In this document: positions 1,688-64,000 of the stretch, one piece after another
Numbering within the stretch: the stretch's first letter is position 1
Layout of the letters: each line of letters opens with the position of its first letter
Assembly: GCA_034780895.1 (NCBI GenBank)
Contig: JAUZTB010000087.1
Location: 66,050,988 to 66,114,987, forward strand
Source: Rhynchobatus australiae
Taxonomy: Eukaryota
Reading direction: 5' to 3'
DNA length: 64,000 nt
Program-made: the position numbers and the translations under genes
The notes under the pieces: model-generated
Databases searched by the model: none
Told to the model about the DNA's origin: nothing
What the model saw: the letters and a program-made list of their open reading frames with translations, nothing else

Positions 1688-2765
1688 GTGTTCATGGCTC
1701 AGTATTGTCACTGGCAGCACCGAGACAAAGACCTGTGGCAGTATGCCCCACCCTGGAGGAGCCTCTCTGCTTTGGTGTGGAGGTCCAATCCATGGGGAAA
1801 CAGAAGAGTGCCACCATTCCCACGCAGCTCCTTTAAAGTCAGCAACTTATTTATCTGTACGTTGAATTTCATGATCACAATACAGCCTCCACCAGCCTAC
1901 CACAACAGCAAGCTTCTCAACTGAACCTCTGCTGACCCTCTGCAGGATGAGTTTGATTGAACACTCATTCGCTTATACTGAGCAGACTAGTGTCTAAATT
2001 CATTTTGTATTTGTTTCAATTGTGGTGCAAGCACCACAGCACTTCAGAGCTTGAGTAGGGTTTTCATTCCTATTTACATAATTCAAAAGATAATAAATCA
2101 AAGATATTCAAGATGTGCTCATGCTAATTTAATGAAAACTGAATTCTCACACAGCCTGTGTCTGAACAGCAGACCAGAAGGACAGTCTTTAATCCTGGGT
2201 GTGCTGGTCATTACTGTAATTTAATGTTGTCTGCATGAGCTGAAAAGCTGGGCAGGATTGGGGGAAGGGAATGAATACATTTAGAACTAATTTGCAGAAA
2301 TGATATTTGATTGAGTGAGCACTCAATGTATGGAACAAGCTTCCATAAAGATTAAAAGATTTATTTCAGAAAATAATATTTTGTGGAACCGTGTATGAGT
2401 AATTTGAGGCATGATGAATGATAATTGTGGCGTGGCTGGGAAGAGGAATTGACTTTGTGTTTATGCCTTGCTATCACTGGGATCTTTTCATGACCTTGTG
2501 ACAGGTTAACTGATAAGTGATTGATCCCACAGAGAGCTAATGCTATAAAATGCCTTTAGCACTTTTTAAAGAGGATTGTTAGAACAAAACTGACACCATG
2601 TCACATACTGAGATACTGGGAAAAATATTATCATAATAACATCCATTATTACACAGATTTATCTCATGGAAACGGGTCACTCTGTCCAAAAGACCAATGT
2701 GTTTAGTGCTGGATCATGTGACTTGAGGTCAACCAGAGATTCTTTAAAAATGTCATAGGATCCGC

Positions 2766-3145
2766 AAAAAACAAAATGCTGGAGGAATTCATTGGAGGGA
2801 AATGGACAGTAGACATTTCGGGTCAGAACCCTTTATCTGGCTGGAGCAAGATAAAAATGCTGTAGGAATTCAGTGGGTCAGGCAACATCTGAAGAGGGAA
2901 ATGGACAGTCGATGTTTCCAGTTGAGACCCTTCATCAGTCCAGATGAAGTCTTCTGACCTGAAGCATTGACTGTCCATTTCCCTCCACAGATGCTGCCTG
3001 ACCCACTGAGTTTGATTTTTGCTCCAGATTCCAGCATTTGCAGTGCCTTGTGTTTCCATGGGATCCACTAGATTGGTTGTCTGACCTGCTGAGTGCTTCC
3101 AGCAGATGCTGTCTTTATTTCAGATTTCTTGCATCTGCAGTTTTT
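2766..3145. mobile_element. Cluster of Penelope-like inverted-arm repeats with decayed hammerhead cores
   Basis: Palindrome centred near 2938 (gggaaatggacagtcgat...attgactgtccatttccc); extra arms at 2766-2845 and 3075-3145. Confidence 0.6.
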
Positions 3146-13740: not shown

Positions 13741-16184
13741 GAGAGGAGGAGTTGATAGTAACGAGACACGATTTGTGGAGAGGACCAAGGCTTTGGTTTG
13801 TGTCTCCCGTTTATTAGTTAATAATATATCCAGTAGTGGTAACAGCTCATGGGTGCCCTAGAGCCTCACACACTTCCTTGCTGGCCTTTGCCATTCACCA
13901 CCTGATCAAGCAACTTCATTACAACTTCAGCAGCTGTTGGACTTTGGCTTCCTTTCCCCACAACTTTTCTTCAGTCCTTCATTACTGTTCAAGGCCAATG
14001 TTGTGAACTCACTGTAACTGCCATCAGTCCTTTCCAGTTTGTGCCCAAAATCCCATTCCCACACACTCAACACCTGAGAACTCGACAAGATTTGAACTGT
14101 GCCTCCCTGGGTATGGGGCAAGTCATTTCTTCTCATCAGACCATCAAACAGGTGGGATTGGGAGGGAGGACACAAACACCTCAGTAATCATCCAGGAACT
14201 GTGGGGCTGTGGATACATGCACAGACATTGGCTCTGTAACATTAAGGACGAGGGGCAGTGTGGCTCCAAAAGGTGGTAAACTTGAATTCCAGCATGCAGC
14301 CCTGTCCCAGAAGCAATAAATGGCAGCAGATGCAATGCCTTCATAGTTGGAGCAGACGCCACTCAGGAAGGACCCTCAGACACACAGGGAGCAGGAGAGG
14401 TCCTGTGCTTGGTAAGTGAAAAGACACTAAATGTAGTACTTCAGTTCAATAGTTTATAATTCTCAGTTACATTTAAACTGGTATGTTTAAATAATAATTA
14501 TAGTTACAATAATTATATATTCATGCTTAATTCTCCTATTTTTAAGAAGACTTAAAAATTCTTAAAATGAAGGCACATCAACTCCATCAGAATATGTGCA
14601 GGTGAGCAGAAACAGAGGCTGATATTCTTGCACATCCCAACGGGCAGCCAAACTAACCTCAAGGAACGCAGCTTTGAATATGGTGAGATAACAGCAAAAT
14701 ACAAATAGCGCCTCTGAGCTTTGCTGGGTGTTGGGCATGAGCTGTTGCTCATGCTGGGAGCTCACTGGGTTTGCCTGACTCCTTAAAGGTGCTATATAAA
14801 TATAAGTTGTTGGTGTTGCCACATCTGGAGCCTGTACTGTTATGGTTCTCAAGGCCTACTAAATGGAATGGTTCCCAGTTCACGGGGGCCTTTGAGCTGT
14901 TTCAGCTATAACATTTAAGAAGAAACTAAGTAAGTATACTCAGCAGAAAAGAGTAGATTGTACTGGTAAATAGTGAAGAAATAAAATGGGAAGAGACTTA
15001 AATGGAGCATAAGCAATGGTGAGGATCAGTTGACCAGGCTATTGAACTAACCTTGGATGAACTGTTGGGAGTTATTGAACTAATTATTGAATAAAAACAC
15101 CACAGCTCTATTGGAGTGTACCTAAAATGTCTAGGTCTAAGTCAAGTCAGTTGTGGAAAATCATCGCCCTTCAGCATCTTCTCCAGACTCCGGCGAGCAC
15201 CTTCGCAAGTAAAACAAAGACATCGAGCCATCAGGCCACGACAGACTGCTTATTACAGACTGCTTCTGTGAATTGATGCCATTAAACAATTAACTGCTCT
15301 ACTAAAGAAGTGAGTATGCATAAATTGAAAGGAGAGACAATGTTGCCTTTGTAGCAGCTTCAGGTCTGCCTTGTAAGGGGGCACCTAATAATGCGCTGAT
15401 TTACTATTAGTCCTNNNNNNNNNNNNNNNNNNNNNNNNNAGGATGTTATCAAACTACGACATCACATTGACAGAAGGTTACTTGTTTTTCGCAGGAAAGA
15501 GACCACAGAAAAATCAGGAATTAAACAGAGGCAAGTCTTGCAGCTTCCACACTCTGATCTTCTAGATGAACCTGTCCTGCTCACAAGGAAGTGCTTGATC
15601 CTATATGTTTTGAGCTATGTGGCCAACACTCAATTCTATGAGCATTTCAAGTGTCAGCGTGGGATCATGTGGGCAGCTGTCAGGGAAATCTCCATTCACT
15701 GGAGCAAGTTGCTCTGCAAGTGACTGAGATCGATTTAATGTACATAATTTATATACAACTATTTTCCACCAACAGCATTTTCTGCAGATTTTAGCTTGTT
15801 TGTACTGGAAGAAGTTGCTGTAGCTTCTCTTTGAAGGGACTGTTTTCTGGGTGAATTGATTTTGTTCAGTGTGCAATAGACTACTTACCGTGAGACACAG
15901 ACTCCCACGTTCCCCTCCAAACCCCAAGTCTGGCTGATGTGACATTGTCAATAAACATTAGTCATAAAGTCAGAAAGTGCAAAAAGGCCCTTCATTATAA
16001 CCATCAATTACCCATCTGTACTAATTCCTCACACCAGCATTTGGTCTGTAGCCTTCCATGACGTGGGAATTCAAGTGTTTCTCTAGATGGTTCATATTGT
16101 TAATAACAAAAAAAATTAACAAGCATCTCATTGCAGTTCTGACCTCTTTTCTTGGCCTATGCAATGTTGGACAGATTCTTGTGA

Positions 16185-16640
16185 GTGAAAAACACCATGA
16201 TACTGGAGGAACTCAGCAGGCCAGGCAGCATCCATGGAGAAAAACAGACAGTCAACANNNNNNNNNNNNNNNNNNNNNNNNNNNNNNNNNNNNNNNNNNN
16301 NNNNNNNNNNNNNNNNNNNNNNNNNNNNNNNNNNNNNNNNNNNNNNNNNNNNNNNNNAAACAGACAGTCAACATTTCAGGTCAGGACCCTTCCTCAGGAA
16401 TGAAAATAGGAAAAGGGGAAGCCCAGTAAAGAGGAGGGGAAAGCAGAGCAGTGATAGGTGGACAGAAGAGGGGAGGCGGGCTTCCCCATTTCCTATCTTC
16501 AGTCCTGAGAAAGGGTCCTGACCCAAAAAGTTGACCGCCTGCGCTTTTCTCCACAGATGCTACCTGGCCTGCTGAGTTCCTCCAGCATCATAGTATTTTT
16601 CATCTAGATTTCCAGCATCTGCAGTCCTTTGTTACTCTAG
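16185..16640. mobile_element. Penelope-like inverted-arm repeat (hammerhead-bearing)
   Basis: Arms tgatactggaggaactcagcaggccaggcagcatc and gatgctacctggcctgctgagttcctccagcatca form a near-perfect inverted pair; same family as 62897-63870. Confidence 0.65.
16365..16402 (-). ncRNA. Minimal type I hammerhead ribozyme motif
   Basis: Minus strand reads CAUUC-CUGAGGA-A-GGGUCCUGACCU-GAAAU-GUU-GACUG. All conserved core nucleotides are present, with G-U wobbles consistent with CpG decay. Confidence 0.65.
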
Positions 16641-27979: not shown

Positions 27980-28330
27980 AAAAAGAACTGCAGATATTGG
28001 ACAGATGAAATAAAAACAAAATATGTTGGAAACCCTCAGCAGGTAAGGTAGTACCTGTGCAAAGAGAAACAGAGTTAATGCTTCAAGTCTGTGATCCCTT
28101 GTCGAAATACCTGAAGGGCCTCGGACCTGAAGCATTAACTATTTCTCTTTTCACAGATGCTGCCTGACCTGCTGAGTGTTTCCAGCATTGTCTGTTTTTA
28201 TTAACTGCTGTGTGCTTTTGCACTCGTGAACAGCATTAAATATATAAATCATACGTGTAATTTTGACTGTTTCTCTCCCCACAGATGCTGCATGACAAAC
28301 TGAATGTCTCCAGCATTTGCTTTTTTTTCC
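27980..28330. mobile_element. Older Penelope-like inverted-arm repeat
   Basis: tgttggaaaccctcagcagg...cctgctgagtgtttccagca inverted arms with a decayed core in the centre. Confidence 0.5.
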
Positions 28331-29160: not shown

Positions 29161-31783
29161 AGTAAGCCAACTGGGTACAGGGGCAGGTTCGTCTCTCTGG
29201 ATATGTGCCAAGACCGGCAAGGCTGGCATTCGTCGACCACTCTTGGATGCCCATGAGACGATGATGAGCCTACCTCTCCAGCCACTGCAGTCAGCGAGTG
29301 ATTTTCTTTGCAGCGGTCTGGCACAATTAGGTCGGCCACTTCGTGGGGTATGAAGAGCTTGGAACCTCACACAGGCCCGGCTGGGTACAACTGGAAAGGA
29401 AGAGTCAGGTGGGCAGCTGCTTCATTAGTGTCCTCTTGCCACGTCTACCCTAACCCTTGCAGCAAGAGAAGCAACCACAAAAGAAGAACATGCTTGGAGA
29501 AAGATACGTATTTTGTTTTAAATATTGAGAACATTAAGGGATATTTGGGTTTGTGCAGGAAAACGGAGCTGCGGTAAGAGATCAGCTACACTCTTATTGA
29601 ATAGTGGAGCAGGCACAAGGGGCTGAATGAGCAGCTACCACTTCTATTTACATTCGTACCTAGCATTGACCATACCTAGGGGCACCTTGCTGTCTGAAGT
29701 AGTGCACCATCACAAAAAAAATCTTTTTCTTGTAATGCGCTGCCAAATGCGGTTCCCCAAGAGCAAGACAAAGAAGCAAAATGGGTGGCTGTGGACTGGT
29801 GTACATGTCCCTGGTCTTTGTCCCTGCTGAGCTTTCTGCTAGATGTGCTGACGAGGAATTGTTACCAACTTTGTAAACCCTCAGCCACAGGGGTCGTAGG
29901 CTACAAGAGAAAGTACGGGTTGTAGTACTGGGGAATGTGGGAGAGACCTCATCACCCAGAGACTGATTAGAATGTAGCAGCCACTACCACAGTGAGCAGT
30001 GAGGCTAAATTGCATCAATAATAAAGGGAAGCTGGATAAACACATGAGGGACTAAGGAGCTGAAGATTGTGCTGACAGTGAGATGGAAGGTAGGTTGTCA
30101 GTACTTGTTGGATCTTTTACTGGAGGGTTGATGATACTAATGTTTTGCCTCTAATATCTGATCAGAAGCTTGCATTACTTAGTCTCCATCTCTCATTTAT
30201 CCATATTAAACATTCCTTCCACACACTCACACACTCATCCAGCCCTTGTTCCTCAGTGTCCATCTTTCCTGAATCGCAGCACACTAATTCTGAAAAATTC
30301 CAAAGCCACGATCGACCAACAAGGCTCAATATTCATCACTTCCCAAAACAGAGACTATTCCAAAGACTGGCCCTATATCTGAATGCGAGGGCTCCCAACA
30401 GCCAGCCATTCAGTGATATCCCAGAGCACCCCAACAGCCAGTTGCTGAGGCTCATCAACAGCCAGCCTCTGAGGCCCATGATTTGCCAAGAGAAGTCCAT
30501 CAGCAGCGCATTACCAAGACCATGTCTCCACACCCAGTGATTTTAGGCCAAATACTCCTGAACCACTATCTGGGCCCAATCTCTGCACCATTTGGTTTGG
30601 TGCAAGGTTGCCTGCCAGCCTGGAGGCGGAACGCTACATCCTGCAGTGTAACCCAGAGCTACTGGTAACTGCATGCAATCCGAAAGGGAGTTAGAGCATG
30701 TGCTAGCAAATCTACAGTCTGTGTGTGGACAGGTAGCAGAGCTGACAGGCACACGTGTCACAGACCTCTCTTCAGTGTCTCCACTCCAGAAAAGCACAGA
30801 TATTTCCAGGAAATTCCAGTCAAAACCGGGTGCATTGGACCCCTAACAAGATGGGGGAAGAGGAAGCTCGTATGGAACATAAACACAGGGGCAAGTTATT
30901 GGTGGGCGATTTCAACAATGCTGATTCAATGCATGACCTGAATCAATGTGGTCAATCCCCATACCCCACCCACCATCCCCACTGGGGGCTGTGCAATCAG
31001 CAATCCCATAGGCACGACAGACTGGGCAATAAATGCTGGCCTTGTTGGTGACACCCACGTCCCAGTGAATGCATCAACAAACAGAAGGAGAACGCTGNNN
31101 NNNNNNNNNNNNNNNNNNNNNNNNNNNNNNNNNNNNNNNNNNNNNNNNNNCAGGACTTTAAGCTGGAGATATCAGGGAAAAAACACAGGAATTGATCTTC
31201 ACCAAATCACCCAATGAGTCACACAATAGAAAAACAAATGTTATAAGACTGAATGAGTGCATAACCAGAAGAAAAAACGATTAACAGCTAAATCCTATTT
31301 ATTGCAAGGTAGATGTATGGCAATAGCACCCATTTTAAACTACTGTACTGTGGGGGATGGGGGTTGACATATTTATTGCTGATCCCACTGCTTGCAAAAG
31401 AAGAATGTCCGTGTCTCAATAATCACAATCTACATTTCCAGTCCTAAGTCAGTATTAATGTGAAAAGGTGGAACAAAATGGACTGAATATTATCAACTGA
31501 AGCATCCTTACGTCTGCCTGGCTCCTGGTTTTTGCTTCAGGTCTTTGATTACTGAGGGAAGCACCTTTCCATTGGTCGGGGGATGCATGTTACATGTCAA
31601 GCCTGTGCTTGTGTAAAGCTTGTTGCCTCTGCAGAGATTTGGCTGCACAACAACATCAGATTGCATTGATAGAGCGCCACTAATGCAATGCAGAGTCTCA
31701 AACAGATGATGTTTGACACATTCCACCTACTGAGAGTGCTCCCTCTCCTGGGATACCCAGAGGGAAGGTCACGTGCGACATAC

Positions 31784-32443
31784 CTTAATCTTGTCGAACC
31801 TGTCGGCCAATGCTGCCACTTGGTGGTCTCGATGGCGCCCCACCAGCTTGCACAGGGCACAGATCAGCTGCTCGTCTGTCACACAGTACATGTTGACCTT
31901 CTCGCTCTCGTGCTCCAGGCACATCAGGCCGCGGAGGTGGGAGTCAGGGACGGGCTCGATGAGGCGGTGCCCGGTGAAGGGCTTCTTGCTGGGGTGGGTG
32001 GCCTTCAGGCAGCCGTCGCAGTAGGAGACCTCGCAGGTCACGCAGGTCTTCACCGCTGCCCGCGGCGGGTCCTGCTCGCAGAACTGGCAGGGGACACGCT
32101 CAGCCGTCGTCATGGCGCTGCCGTCGAGGGCCTGCTCCCGGCGGCTCTCGCCTGGTGAGTTGGGCCCGCTCACCGAGGCCTTCTGGAAGCGGTCGATGAT
32201 GTTCTGCAGGGTGACGTTGCGCTTCAGCCCCTCTAAGCCGCGGTGGTTGAGGGCGATGACATAGCGGCACGTCGGGCACTGGAAGGCGGCAATGGATTCC
32301 ACGCTCTCGTTGGACGCACAGTGAGAGACCAGGATGCGGTGGGCGCAGCTGAAGCAGAGGCTGTGGGCACAGGGTAGAAGCAGCGGATCCTCGAAGAGCT
32401 CTAAACAGATAGGGCAGGTCAGTTCCGACTCCAGTGTTTCCAT
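31784..32443 (-). CDS. MID2: Midline family E3 ubiquitin ligase (TRIM C-I; MID2/TRIM1 favoured over MID1/TRIM18), first major coding exon: RING + B-box1 + B-box2
   Basis: Translation [36 protein letters not shown]...[26 protein letters not shown] is 660 nt (220 codons) and ends at AAG|GTATGT, a phase 0 donor at 31783. This matches the exon size I recall for human MID1/MID2. MID2-type residues: CFS, NHRG, ESRRE, CEQDPPR, VPDxHL, DRF. MID1-type residues: SHC, SVES, GLMCLEH, VTD. Family assignment ~0.98, paralogue assignment ~0.6. Confidence 0.95.
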
Positions 32444-32499
32444 CTTCAGGCAAAGCAATCCTGTGTCGTCAGCAAAATCCAGGGAGGCTGGTGAGCTAT
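32444..32499 (-). other. 5' part of the same exon (56 nt before METLE); open, in-frame extension [19 protein letters not shown]
   Basis: Acceptor cctgtgttgcctttccAG at 32500-32501 and branch-point-like CTAAT at 32523-32527. The 56 nt equal 2 nt plus 18 codons with no stop. Confidence 0.8.
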
Positions 32500-34256
32500 C
32501 TGGAAAGGCAACACAGGATTCGATTAGACGGTTGCACTGGGAGGGAGGAGGGGCTCAGCTGAGGGAGGTTGTTGACTTACGCTGGAGCAGTGACCCATTA
32601 CTCCCAGACAGCTCCCGCCCGCCGCTCAGACTCAGCCACAAACTCCAGGCAAGTGCCCGCGCCTCCCGAACAGCTAGGGGAAGGGAGCCTTCCCACGCGC
32701 CGCGGACTTGGAGGGAGAGACAGGGCCGGCATCGCCCAGGAGTCGGCCGCGCGGCAGCCCCTGCCCCGCGCTCCACTCGGGGACGGCTCTGTGCCGCAAG
32801 CAGACAGCCCAGTGAGGCGGAAGATGCCCATNNNNNNNNNNNNNNNNNNNNNNNNNNNNNNNNNNNNNNNNNNNNNNNNNNNNCTCTGAGGCCCCGTCCC
32901 ATCACCGAACCTCCCGACCTTTCCCAAAAGCAAAATGCTGCCCCTTTCCTGGGGGGGGGGGGTGGGGGGGTGGGGAAGGGGGTTCCACGGATTCATCGGA
33001 TTCATTAGCGAACAGGAGACGGCTGCAAGAAAAACAAATCTAATCTAATCGTGTCCATCCAACTAGCTACGGGCTTCATTAACTACAACTGATTAGTTTT
33101 AGTGTTGCAAGCGCAGTTGGCAAGAGTTTATCGAGGGGAAACATGACAACTTGAAGACGAACCAATTTTTTGAAAAAGTACTTGACAAGCCTTTATTATT
33201 CCAATGAATGCAGTCGACACTAGTATGAAGGTATGAAAGCAACCTGCGGGTTTAAAGGGTCACAGTGCTCATTAAAATCAGCATGGGGTGAGGGATGAGG
33301 GAGGGAGGGAGGTAATGGGGTCTGTGAACGACAGGACATTGGAATGACAGCTGCTTATCAGAATTTTTAGCTGCACTGACCCTTCAGCTTGTTGATGTTA
33401 ACAGCACAGCAACAAATCCCAAGTCAGGGCCCCCATCCATCAAAAAAAAACTTCCTCAACCAGGAGTCACGGTGGAACTGATGCCAAAGGTGGGCTTTAG
33501 ATGGAGATAGTGGACGGGGGCTGGCAGGCTGGCAGGGCCTCACGTTTAATCTCTCTGACAGAAAGTGACTCTGCCAGTGAAGCACACCCACTGCACTGAA
33601 CTGGAATGTCGGCCTTGGGTTTTGCGCTCAAGTCTCTGTGTGGGCACTGGGATTCCTCTCCCACGCTTCTTAACACTTCAACTAAGAAAATATAAAATAT
33701 GGGATTAATGTAGGATTAGTGTAAATGGGTGGCTGAAGGTTGGCATGGACTCAGTGGGCCAAAGGACCCATTTCTGTTCTATATCTCCACGGTTCTAAAG
33801 TGCCCTCTGATTAAATCAATGATGAACTGCCACAAACCCCTCCCTCATTTCTGAGGGTCCAAACAATCCGCACTGGCAGCAATTAGTTCTGATGGCGGCC
33901 ACCGGCCTTTACAGCAACACCAATAACAATTGTCCAAAATCCGATGTGACATTGCTTACAACTTAAAGAAGGGTCACCTGCACAATTTGACAAACTTGCA
34001 ATGACTTGAGAATGAGGGAGAGGAGGAGCGTAATGAGGAAGGAAGGAAAGAAGAGTGGGAAAGGAGAAAGAGTATGAGGCCTGGATTTATAGAGTGGCTT
34101 TTTGTCGGCTGGGTATCCCACACAGCAACTCCCCATTAGCACAGATGAGATAATGAATGTAGAGGTATTGGTTAAGGGATAAGGACACCAGCGAGATCTC
34201 CCCTGCTCTTCCTCAAGTAGTGCCTAGGGATCTATTACCTGAATGAGCAGGTAAGT

Positions 34257-35904: not shown

Positions 35905-37095
35905 AAAAGGGATTTTGGCTGAGGAGTTGGTGCTGGAGGGAAGGTTTTAGATTTTTTGATCATTGGGATCTCTTCTGGGGAAGGTGGGACCTGTACATAG
36001 AGGACAGGATACACCTGAACCCGAGGGGGGCCAATATCCTTTCAGGCAGGTGCTAGGGTGGTTCAGGAAGGTTTAGACTAGTTTGCAAGGGGGATGGGAA
36101 CCAGAGGGGTAGGTCAGAGGAAGAAGTAGATGTGGAAAAGTCAGATCTAATATGCAGAGAGGCTTTGAGGAAGGAGCAGCAGAGTACAGGGTATAAAAGT
36201 AGAAAGGTGGATGGGCTAAAGTGCGTTTACTTGAATGCAAGAAGTATCAGGAATAAGGGTGATGAACTGAGAGCTTCGTTAAGTACATGGGATTATGATA
36301 TTGTGGCTCTTGCAGAGACTTGGCTTCACCAGGGCAGGAATGCGTATTGAATATTCCTGGATTTCAGTGTTTTAAAAGGGATGGGGGGTGTGGGNNNNNN
36401 NNNNNNNNNNNNNNNNNNNNNNNNNNNNNNNNNNNNNNNNNNNNNNNNNNNNNNNNNNNNNNNNNNNNNNNNNNNNNNNNNNNNNNNNNNNNNNTGACCA
36501 GGAAGATTGATGAGGGTAGTGTAGTAGATGTGGTCTACATGGATTTTAGTAAGGCGTTTGACAAGGTTCCACATAGTTGGCTTCTTCAGAAGGTCAAAGG
36601 GCATAGGATCCAGGGAGGCTTGGGCGTGTGGATTCAGAATTGGCTTGCCTGTAGAAAGCAGAGGGTTGTGGTGGAGGGAGTGTATTCAGAATGGAGGGCT
36701 GTGACTAGTGGTGTCCCACAAGGATCAGTTCTGGGAGCTCTACTTTTCGATAATTAATGACTTGGATGAGGGGGTAGAAGGGTGGGTCAGCAAGTTTGCA
36801 GATGACACAAAGGTAGGTGGTGTTGTGGATAGTGTGGAGGACTGTCGAAGCTTGCAGAGGGATACTGATAGGATGCAGAGCTGAGCTGAGAAGTGGCAGA
36901 TGGAGTTCAATCTGGAGAAGTGAGGTGGTACGTTTTGGAAGGACAAACTCCAAGGCTGAGTACAAGGCTAATGGCAAGATTCTGGGTAGTGTGGAGGAGT
37001 AGAGGGATCTGGGGGTTCATATACACAGATCACAGGAAGTTGCCTCAAAGGTGGATAAGGTAGTTAAGAAAGCTCTTGGGATGTTTAAGAGCCAT
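35905..37095 (+). mobile_element. CR1-clade LINE: ORF1 esterase C-terminus, ORF2 endonuclease start, gap, then RT domain (frameshifted)
   Basis: Peptides WCWREGFRFFDHWDLFWGRWDLY..IHLNPRGANIL, LKCVYLNARSIRNKGDEL..DIVALAETWL, DVVYMDFSKAFDKVPH, VTSGVPQGSVLG and SKFADDTK. Confidence 0.92.
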
Positions 37096-62480: not shown

Positions 62481-62954
62481 AGGTGGTTAATGGGGAGCCT
62501 GAGCTCAGTATCAACACTAATGAGCTGAGACGATGAATAGTGTTAACACTGAAATGAGCTCAGACACACATAGCATGGTGTACACAAGTGAAAAAATTAT
62601 GTGAATGCACAGAAATAACACTCAAGTTCAGCCAATAGATTAATACAGGCAGAGTACAAAAACATGTTCAGAAAAGGCTGCATATAGTGACAATATCATA
62701 CCTTGGCAGAATAGATGACTATGTAATTCTCCTCTCATTATTCTTGGTGACCATATTACTGTAATATCTGAGTGTGATTTTTAAGTACATCCTTTACAGG
62801 CAACTGTCCTCCACTCTCTGCAATTCTTTGAGGATTTTATCAGGGAAAGCTACTGTAGTTTTTCTCTTGGCTCTTCAAATAGGATCTATTTTCTGAGTAA
62901 CACACAAAGTGCTGGAGGAACTCAAGTCAGGCAGCACCTATGGAGGAAAATAAA

Positions 62955-62992
62955 CAGTCGAGGTTTCGGGTCAAGACCCTTCATCAGGACTG
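62955..62992 (-). ncRNA. Minimal type I hammerhead ribozyme motif (Penelope-like element terminal repeat)
   Basis: Minus strand reads CAGUC-CUGAUGA-A-GGGUCUUGACCC-GAAAC-CUC-GACUG. Stem I is CAGUC/GACUG, the core is CUGAUGA plus GAAA, stem II is GGGU/ACCC. One change (CUC) relative to the inferred family consensus GUC/GUU. Confidence 0.7.
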
Positions 62993-63739
62993 GAAAAAAA
63001 GAGGGCAGAAGGCGGAATAAGATGGTTGGGGAAGAGGAGTACTCACAGGTAGGTGATAGGCGTCACCTCGTGACCAGCCCATCTATTCCCCATCTCCTTT
63101 CCTTTCTCTCTTCCACCACCCCCATGGTCTACTGCCTTCTCCTACCAGATTCCATCTTCGTCAGCCCTNNNNNNNNNNNNNNNNNNNNNNNNNNNNNNNN
63201 NNNNNNNNNNNNNNNNNNNNNNNNNNNNNNNNNNNNNNNNNNNNNNNNNNNNNNNNNNNNNNNNNNNNNNNNNNNNNNNNNNNNNNNNNNNNNNNNNNNN
63301 NNNNNNNNNNNNNNNNNNNNNNNNNNNNNNNNNNNNNNNNNNNNNNNNNNNNNNNNNNNNNNNNNNNNNNNNNNNNNNNNNNNNNNNNNNNNNNNNNNNN
63401 NNNNNNNNNNNNNNNNNNNNNNNNNNNNNNNNNNNNNNNNNNNNNNNNNNNNNNNNNNNNNNNNNNNNNNNNNNNNNNNNNNNNNNNNNNNNNNNNNNNN
63501 NNNNNNNNNNNNNNNNNNNNNNNNNNNNNNNNNNNNNNNNNNNNNNNNNNNNNNNNNNNNNNNNNNNNNNNNNNNNNNNNNNNNNNNNNNNNNNNNNNNN
63601 NNNNNNNNNNNNNNNNNNNNNNNNNNNNNNNNNNNNNNNNNNNNNNNNNNNNNNNNNNNNNNNNNNNNNNNNNNNNNACCTGCCAGCCTGTGCTCCTCCC
63701 CCTCCCTGACCTTATTCTGGCTTCTGCCCTCTTCCTTTC

Positions 63740-63780
63740 CAGTCCTGATGAAGGGCCTTGACTGGAAATGTTGACAACTG
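63740..63780 (+). ncRNA. Degenerate hammerhead ribozyme motif (inverted partner of 62955-62992)
   Basis: Reads CAGTC-CTGATGA-A-GGGCCTTGACTG-GAAAT-GTT-GACAACTG; stem II is disrupted. Confidence 0.5.
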
Positions 63781-64000
63781 TTTATTTCCCTCCATAGATC
63801 CTGCCCAACCTGCCGAGTTCCTCCAGCATTGTGTGTTGCTCCAGATTCCAGCATCTGTAGAGTCTCTTTTGACTTACTGCACCATGAACTGTGTGATGCA
63901 AGACACACGCAATCCACCTCCAATATATTGATTACATTGCAACAGCCAGTAACTATTCTGTTTGGATAATGCATTATGGTAACAGTCATAACATCAGCCA

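Follow-up and report, generated by a model that had tools for sequence, protein, structure and literature searches.

Outward-Facing, Damaged Minimal Hammerhead Motifs in a Probable Penelope-Like Element Insertion of the Ray Rhynchobatus australiae

Introduction

Minimal hammerhead ribozymes (min-HHRs) were described in the pLTRs of metazoan Penelope-like elements (PLEs) by Cervera and de la Pena (2014; PMC4209133), and the class of elements has been known since that year. These motifs are marked by an extra nucleotide after position 9, a G10.1-C11.1 pair, and a palindromic 15.2-16.2; monomers did not cleave, and dimers showed low cleavage. Statements on published systems, here and below, refer to parts of the cited sources. 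In those parts, the hosts named in PMC4209133 are fishes, coelacanth, frog, and reptiles, with no shark or ray among them, and the word "shark" is absent both from its supplement file 2 and from the text of Craig et al. (2021; PMC8557442).

The latter authors dealt with the EN+ PLEs, in which an inverted, 5′-truncated copy, a one-sided tail of 30-40 bp, and trouble during assembly are recurrent features. In the Poseidon element PAc of Anolis (Frangieh et al. 2024; PMC11167929), reverse transcription starts internally, downstream of the hammerhead, and the ribozyme is protein-assisted. Insertion of PAc in vitro takes place without ribozyme cleavage. A further related group, the animal non-LTR retrozymes (PMC7229834), is formed by head-to-tail tandems with a complete ribozyme in each unit. 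Retrozymes were reported from one chondrichthyan genome in a preprint (bioRxiv 10.64898/2026.07.22.740005), according to which one of nine frog dimers cleaves.

In this work, a hammerhead-bearing repeat was examined in a 64,000-nt stretch of R. australiae DNA, hereafter the window. The locus most probably represents a single old insertion of an EN-bearing PLE, probably of Neptune type, composed of a 5′-truncated 3′ end of the element and a shorter inverted copy of it (probability of roughly 0.85). The window locus adds a damaged member to the known class. No published description of this elasmobranch family was found in searches of openly accessible papers.

Layout of the Locus

The locus consists of two arms, which agree in 133 of 159 aligned positions (84% identity). 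The left arm (62895..63062, minus strand) is an inverted, 5′-truncated copy of the 3′ end of the element without its terminal tail, and is defined by its identity to the right arm and by a jump in repeat depth, from ~5-47 in the neighboring flank bin to 1e4-1e6. The right arm (63678..63841, plus strand) is the forward copy of the same 3′ end, delimited likewise by identity and depth. Between the arms lies an assembly gap of 509 N (63169..63677), which the preliminary description did not mention. The visible part of the middle (63063..63168, plus strand) is repeat sequence too; based on depth and on joints in contigs, this pyrimidine-rich segment is the upstream portion of the forward copy, probably 3′ UTR or pLTR of the element, and it gave no match to PLE ORFs.

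The pyrimidine content flips from 21% to 77% across position ~63062, where sequence and composition place a probable inversion junction, bracketed by a 5-bp inverted repeat (63052..63067). This short repeat is a possible microhomology for template switching. In addition, 12 joints, each found in one or two contigs, put 63063-63168 upstream of the right arm and collinear with it. Because of the composition flip and the 12 collinear joints, the locus is read as a forward copy (63063-63868) which follows a shorter inverted copy (62895-63062), with both hammerhead motifs reading outward, that is, head-to-head.

An alternative, in which each arm stems from an insertion of its own or the pair was mis-scaffolded around the gap, draws on the 509 N between them, on the lack of a locus-spanning contig among the contigs listed from four runs, and on the density of the family, with nine arms aligned within the window. 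However, the inversion junction near 63062 sits in read sequence to the left of the gap, family contigs join the segment following the junction to the right arm in collinear order, and an equal layout without a central gap is found at 2.9 kb, 16.4 kb, and 28 kb of the window. We therefore regard this alternative as very unlikely.

The arm alignment stops at 63841-63845 and repeat depth continues to 63868. The right arm thus carries a one-sided terminal tail of ~25-30 nt (63842..63868, plus strand), recognized from the end of the alignment and from depth, which is missing from the left arm. The ends of the locus are not flanked by a convincing target-site duplication; the best candidate is 6 nt long and lies 25 nt off the left end. 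In all these respects, that is, 5′-truncation, an adjacent inverted copy, a one-sided tail, and a gap in the fold-back, the locus resembles the units of EN+ PLEs (PMC8557442), most likely those of Neptune. It differs in the length of the tail (~25-30 nt as compared with 30-40) and in that no ORF is present in its read sequence. Judged from its relatives, the element probably belongs to the Neptune clade.

Directly after the motif, a putative 3′-splice-site-like feature, namely a pyrimidine tract with a terminal YAG, is located at 62938..62954 (minus strand) and again in the right arm at 63781-63797 (plus strand). According to the arm alignment this tract belongs to the element, and the YAG occupies the aligned column in all seven window arms that cover it (nine arms aligned). 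An ATG follows the YAG directly in four of the seven. Judged from sequence, the tract and the ATG may correspond to an intron end and an ORF start of the element itself.

The Hammerhead Motifs of the Two Arms

The letters quoted in the preliminary description for 62992-62955 (minus strand) agree exactly with the window sequence, and all the elements claimed there, i.e., stem I, both core strands, the extra A, stem II, and an NUH site, are present. In detail, the left-arm motif (62955..62992, minus strand) is a minimal type I hammerhead with a stem I of 5 bp, CUGAUGA, the extra A, a stem II of 4 bp closed by a tetraloop, and GAAA. Its core fits CUGANGA and GAAA, and the NUH is CUC. The minimum free energy fold shows the 5-bp stem I and the 4-bp stem II, with both the extra nucleotide between 9 and 10.1 and the G10.1-C11.1 pair in place. 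The energy of the fold is not unusual (z of -1.3; 24 of 200 shuffled sequences were as good).

A descriptor of the minimal hammerhead retrieved a single site in the 64-kb window, 62992-62955 (minus strand), and none in 300 locally shuffled windows. Similarly, 20 unrelated motifs linked to PLEs served to build a covariance model, whose top match in the window was 62954-62993 (minus strand; 27 bits, with a rough E value of ~9e-5). The support from the model is only partly independent, since its core was chosen with a pattern derived from the window. The search with Infernal and Rfam, proposed in the preliminary description, turned out negative: the window holds no Rfam match at the gathering score, and none of the hammerhead families of Rfam appears at E ≤ 10 in 62800-63950. 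The minimal hammerhead motif at 62992-62955 (minus strand) is real.

The mirror copy, which had been described as decayed, is indeed so. The right-arm motif (63740..63780, plus strand) retains the core strands, and its stems I, II, and III are damaged: stem II is broken, with a G-G at its base, a U occupies position 15.2, and stem I has a 3-nt insertion. This motif is not among the eight covariance-model matches of the window at E ≤ 5.

As for stem III, the 3′ strand of the left-arm motif reads C15.2-C16.2-U16.1-C17 (minus strand), with the palindrome broken at 62962. The C at 16.2 means that the left copy has lost its palindromic stem III. A palindromic 15.2-16.2 is thus found in neither copy, given C16.2 in the left arm and U15.2 in the right, and a descriptor requiring this pair has no site in the 64-kb window. 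The majority of the family, on the other hand, restores G16.2 at 62962 in all four runs of contigs (66, 64, 61, and 67% of depth). Consensus sequences of loose ends behind 63755 (241-289 contigs per run) give ACGU together with intact stems I and II in three of three runs. The earlier proposal that stem III is the palindrome ACGU therefore holds for the family majority and fails for the very copy from which it was quoted.

Compared with the min-HHRs of PMC4209133, the motif shares the core strands, a helix I of 4-5 bp, the lack of a real helix III, and, in the family majority, the palindrome. The arrangement is also similar, as single motifs or opposite-strand pairs 100-700 bp apart occur. The differences are a helix II of 4 bp, against 7-8 bp in the motifs of Schistosoma, and the damage of both copies.

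The Repeat Family

Repeat depth was obtained from contigs of four public runs, which represent four organisms and four studies, and is not a copy number. Summed contig depth rises from ~4-140 in the bins of the flanks to 1e4-2e6 within the arms, and the change is abrupt at both borders, near 62895 and near 63868; the element is a very abundant repeat. Over 63063-63168 depth is mostly 1e3-1e5; within the forward copy it declines in the 5′ direction, in agreement with published PLE insertions. For instance, in run X1 depth amounts to ~5e5 at 63720-63744, ~6e3 at 63707, and 3e3-3e4 in 63070-63168. The 64-kb window contains no tRNA gene, hence no visible SINE head.

One contig of organism B spans 62600-62987; it starts in unique flanking sequence and covers 93 nt of the left arm, which indicates that the insertion is older than the split from organism B. 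Contigs of organisms C and D enter the left arm by just 21-24 nt, which is too short to count.

Further fold-backs with outward-reading motifs are located at 2760-3060, 16170-16630, and 28005-28330. All four two-arm loci of the window are therefore fold-backs, each with its own center and arm lengths, and a one-sided extension accompanies three of the four (this locus and those at 2.9 kb and 16 kb). The locus at 2760-3060 comprises two decayed head-to-tail units on the minus strand and an inverted unit centered over the hammerhead core. At 16258-16357, a gap of 100 N is flanked on both sides by identical 16-mers, suggestive of overlapping contig ends that were not merged. With the same 16 letters on either side of that gap, the sizes of fold-back gaps may be inflated.

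The head-to-tail pair brings up the reading of the repeat as an animal non-LTR retrozyme producing circular RNA. In favor of this reading are the type I-like hammerhead of the element, the report of retrozymes from a single chondrichthyan genome (bioRxiv 10.64898/2026.07.22.740005), and the one decayed pair of head-to-tail units, at 2790-2940. Like the retrozymes (PMC7229834 and the above preprint), the repeat is non-coding, hammerhead-bearing, and PLE-related. Unlike their head-to-tail units with complete ribozymes, the window locus is head-to-head with one damaged motif per strand; no tandem array is found there, and the motif is minimal instead of canonical. The probability of a retrozyme is close to nil. 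From the interpretation first given to this repeat, the PLE-kind minimal type I hammerhead and the PLE origin are retained, and the "retrozyme-type" label is given up, as the damaged motifs point apart and form no tandem.

The preliminary description also viewed the fold-back as a non-autonomous family of its own, in which a hairpin RNA is re-inserted whole by PLE proteins. Depth of the upstream segment is ~20-fold or more below that of the motif, so short forms dominate; four of the four two-arm family loci of the window are fold-backs; and non-autonomous PLE derivatives have been published (PMC8557442; bioRxiv 2026.07.22.740005). The structure of the copies speaks against such a family. Centers and arm lengths differ at all four window loci, the joints listed (15 of 315 arm-to-arm joints in contigs) are scattered over many positions, and convincing target-site duplications next to the ends are missing. 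Moreover, A/G differences between the arms are three each way, and being equal they leave no editing scar. A self-propagating hairpin is thus unlikely. Non-autonomous status is not needed, because an inverted truncated neighbor and a one-sided tail are the ordinary product of a PLE (PMC8557442), and an ordinary PLE insertion accounts for the layout, with four different centers in the window.

Thirteen of the 15 listed joints (of 315) begin at 62985-62993. This clustering suggests that the turning point of many fold-backs in the family coincides with the motif's 5′ border and lies upstream of the predicted cut.

The Same Core behind Penelope-Like ORFs

A degenerate core motif of 20 bases was found at ≥126 loci, i.e., at least 122 in metagenome data (10 of 64 parts scanned) and four in genome contigs. 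Scans of viral contigs with the core motif gave no match. By BLAST, none of the at least 126 loci listed resembles the window element outside the core. Matches to PLE ORFs were obtained at 37 of the 126 loci among the matches listed, and at 33 of the 126 listed loci (four of the 33 being query loci) the C-terminal end of the ORF lies 67-180 nt upstream of the core on the same strand. The four genome-contig loci are of two kinds: two are like animal motifs, and two lie amid long bacterial-looking ORFs and are probably due to chance.

In the search pattern stem I was left out and helix II was fixed. The matches listed provide 63 distinct contexts, and in 29 of them stem I has ≥4 pairs, compared with a shuffled mean of 4.9 (maximum of 12). 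Alignment A2 contains 20 distinct motifs, from 19 of 34 ORF-linked loci, after removal of identical strings. In these 20 ORF-linked motifs stem I shows 26 double-sided changes, a figure reached by none of 500 shuffles and inflated by relatedness. The covariation that had been called for is thus found in stem I, across unrelated core-sharing families of other animals, and helix II is uninformative in this regard, being fixed by the pattern. The stem I of the window motif is one more pairing variant beside those of the unrelated families. Opposite-strand pairs of motifs in the core loci are head-to-head in nine cases and tail-to-tail in none, among the matches listed.

Many unrelated families (L001-L122) have an identical core, a GGG/CCC stem II, and ACGU, and their stem I varies with compensation. 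They offer a ready set for a curated model of the minimal hammerhead, for which Rfam gave no match here. A record titled as a bacterial MAG holds animal-type PLE hammerhead motifs and the end of a GIY-YIG ORF (L123:3854-3880 and L126:5001-5967); its PLE motifs are probably host DNA binned into the MAG.

In the locus L005, an RT/GIY-YIG frame of 595 residues ends 132 nt ahead of the motif, and an inverted motif is present too. Protein searches starting from L005 reach PLE proteins of sharks. The linker CX2-5CxxC is found in 94 of the 101 GIY-motif proteins which were retrieved through the motif; as regards the shark relatives, it is present in P0032 and P0093 and degenerate in P0121. The Pfam scores of the PLE domains are mostly under the curated cut-offs.

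The protein P0121 (zebra shark, according to its source) contains RT and GIY-YIG motifs followed by ~130 more residues that end in the translated core. This is the only one among 130 proteins with the translated core (chance expectation of 0.0014, for a motif picked after the sequence had been seen). The frame of the core in P0121 is also given by the window arm, where a Pro replaces the Arg of P0121, matching the change at 16.2. A BLASTP comparison of the left-arm frame with P0121 left the core unaligned (best E of 0.35), the short shared motif being missed. Since only the core is common to P0121 and the window element, the former represents a different subfamily.

The translated left arm matched none of the 12 candidate proteins and nothing among 1.84 billion representatives. 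Records joining these exact flanks to an ORF were found neither in the viral-contig searches nor in the protein searches, nor among the metagenome matches listed. The proposed link to PLE ORFs is consequently borne out for the core, which stands behind ORFs in the 33 of 126 listed loci, and not for the exact subfamily. The window locus had been said to lack an RT/GIY-YIG ORF, and this is confirmed for the read sequence: when the window was searched by tblastn with 130 PLE-like proteins, the best E was 0.009, outside the locus. Such a lack of an RT/GIY-YIG ORF is expected, as the copy is truncated.

Origin of the Locus and Predicted Inertness

According to published PLE biology, the RT/GIY-YIG protein of the element would have nicked the target. 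Reverse transcription would then have started ~100 nt downstream of the hammerhead and ended early, leaving the forward copy (63063-63868); the inverted copy 62895-63062 could stem from template switching or from a second priming. This scheme draws on PAc (PMC11167929), which similarly has its hammerhead in a pLTR and the end of the element ~100 nt downstream. PAc belongs to another clade, has a different sequence, and is active, whereas the window copy is a stump. The copies have kept the motif in full, which is consistent with an RNA template that was not cleaved. In an active parent, cleavage would occur only in the dimer, through two paired ACGU palindromes, and would be weak, possibly with help from proteins.

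No RNA cutting is predicted for the copy at this locus, because both motifs are damaged and neither has a partner on the same strand. In detail, the left motif is without the palindrome, the right one is without stem II, and the two lie on opposite strands. Transcripts from either side would contain the antisense arm ahead of the motif. In co-folding, the arms form a predicted duplex of ~-220 kcal/mol, and the stem probabilities of the motif drop from 0.76-0.89 to 0.00 when both arms are present. The motif is thus predicted to be buried in a long duplex of the arms.

With this family, sharks and rays join the animals whose genomes are full of PLE minimal hammerheads, a finding of modest importance. 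The window copy itself, being damaged, adds little. The huge copy number of the family is suited to tests, through junction statistics, of how the inversions and tails of PLEs arise.

Neighboring Features

A coding exon with RING and B-box domains, from a TRIM gene similar to Midline-1/2, is located at 31772-32554 (minus strand) in a GC-rich part of the window. Its best solved match is Midline-1 (E of 1.8e-58), and the hammerhead locus lies ~30 kb upstream on the same strand.

Given this Midline-1-like coding exon, the left motif or the splice-acceptor-like tract might be regarded as co-opted on the minus-strand pre-mRNA, all the more as the left motif folds well when alone and the insertion is also present in organism B. 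The broken palindrome, the missing same-strand partner, and the predicted masking by the duplex argue against a function of this kind, and the exon is ~30 kb away, with the locus not known to lie inside its transcript. Co-option is extremely unlikely. A broader and speculative view would regard the ray stumps as self-standing hairpin-RNA retroelements that PLE proteins re-mobilize in one piece, whose 5′ ends are determined by the hammerhead region and whose acceptors seed cryptic exons or intronic double-stranded RNA, e.g., in Midline-1; this is improbable, to the same degree as the self-propagating hairpin family discussed above.

Unrelated to the fold-back, a partial reverse transcriptase of LINE type lies at 36497-36754 (plus strand; Pfam RVT_1, E of 1.7e-10).
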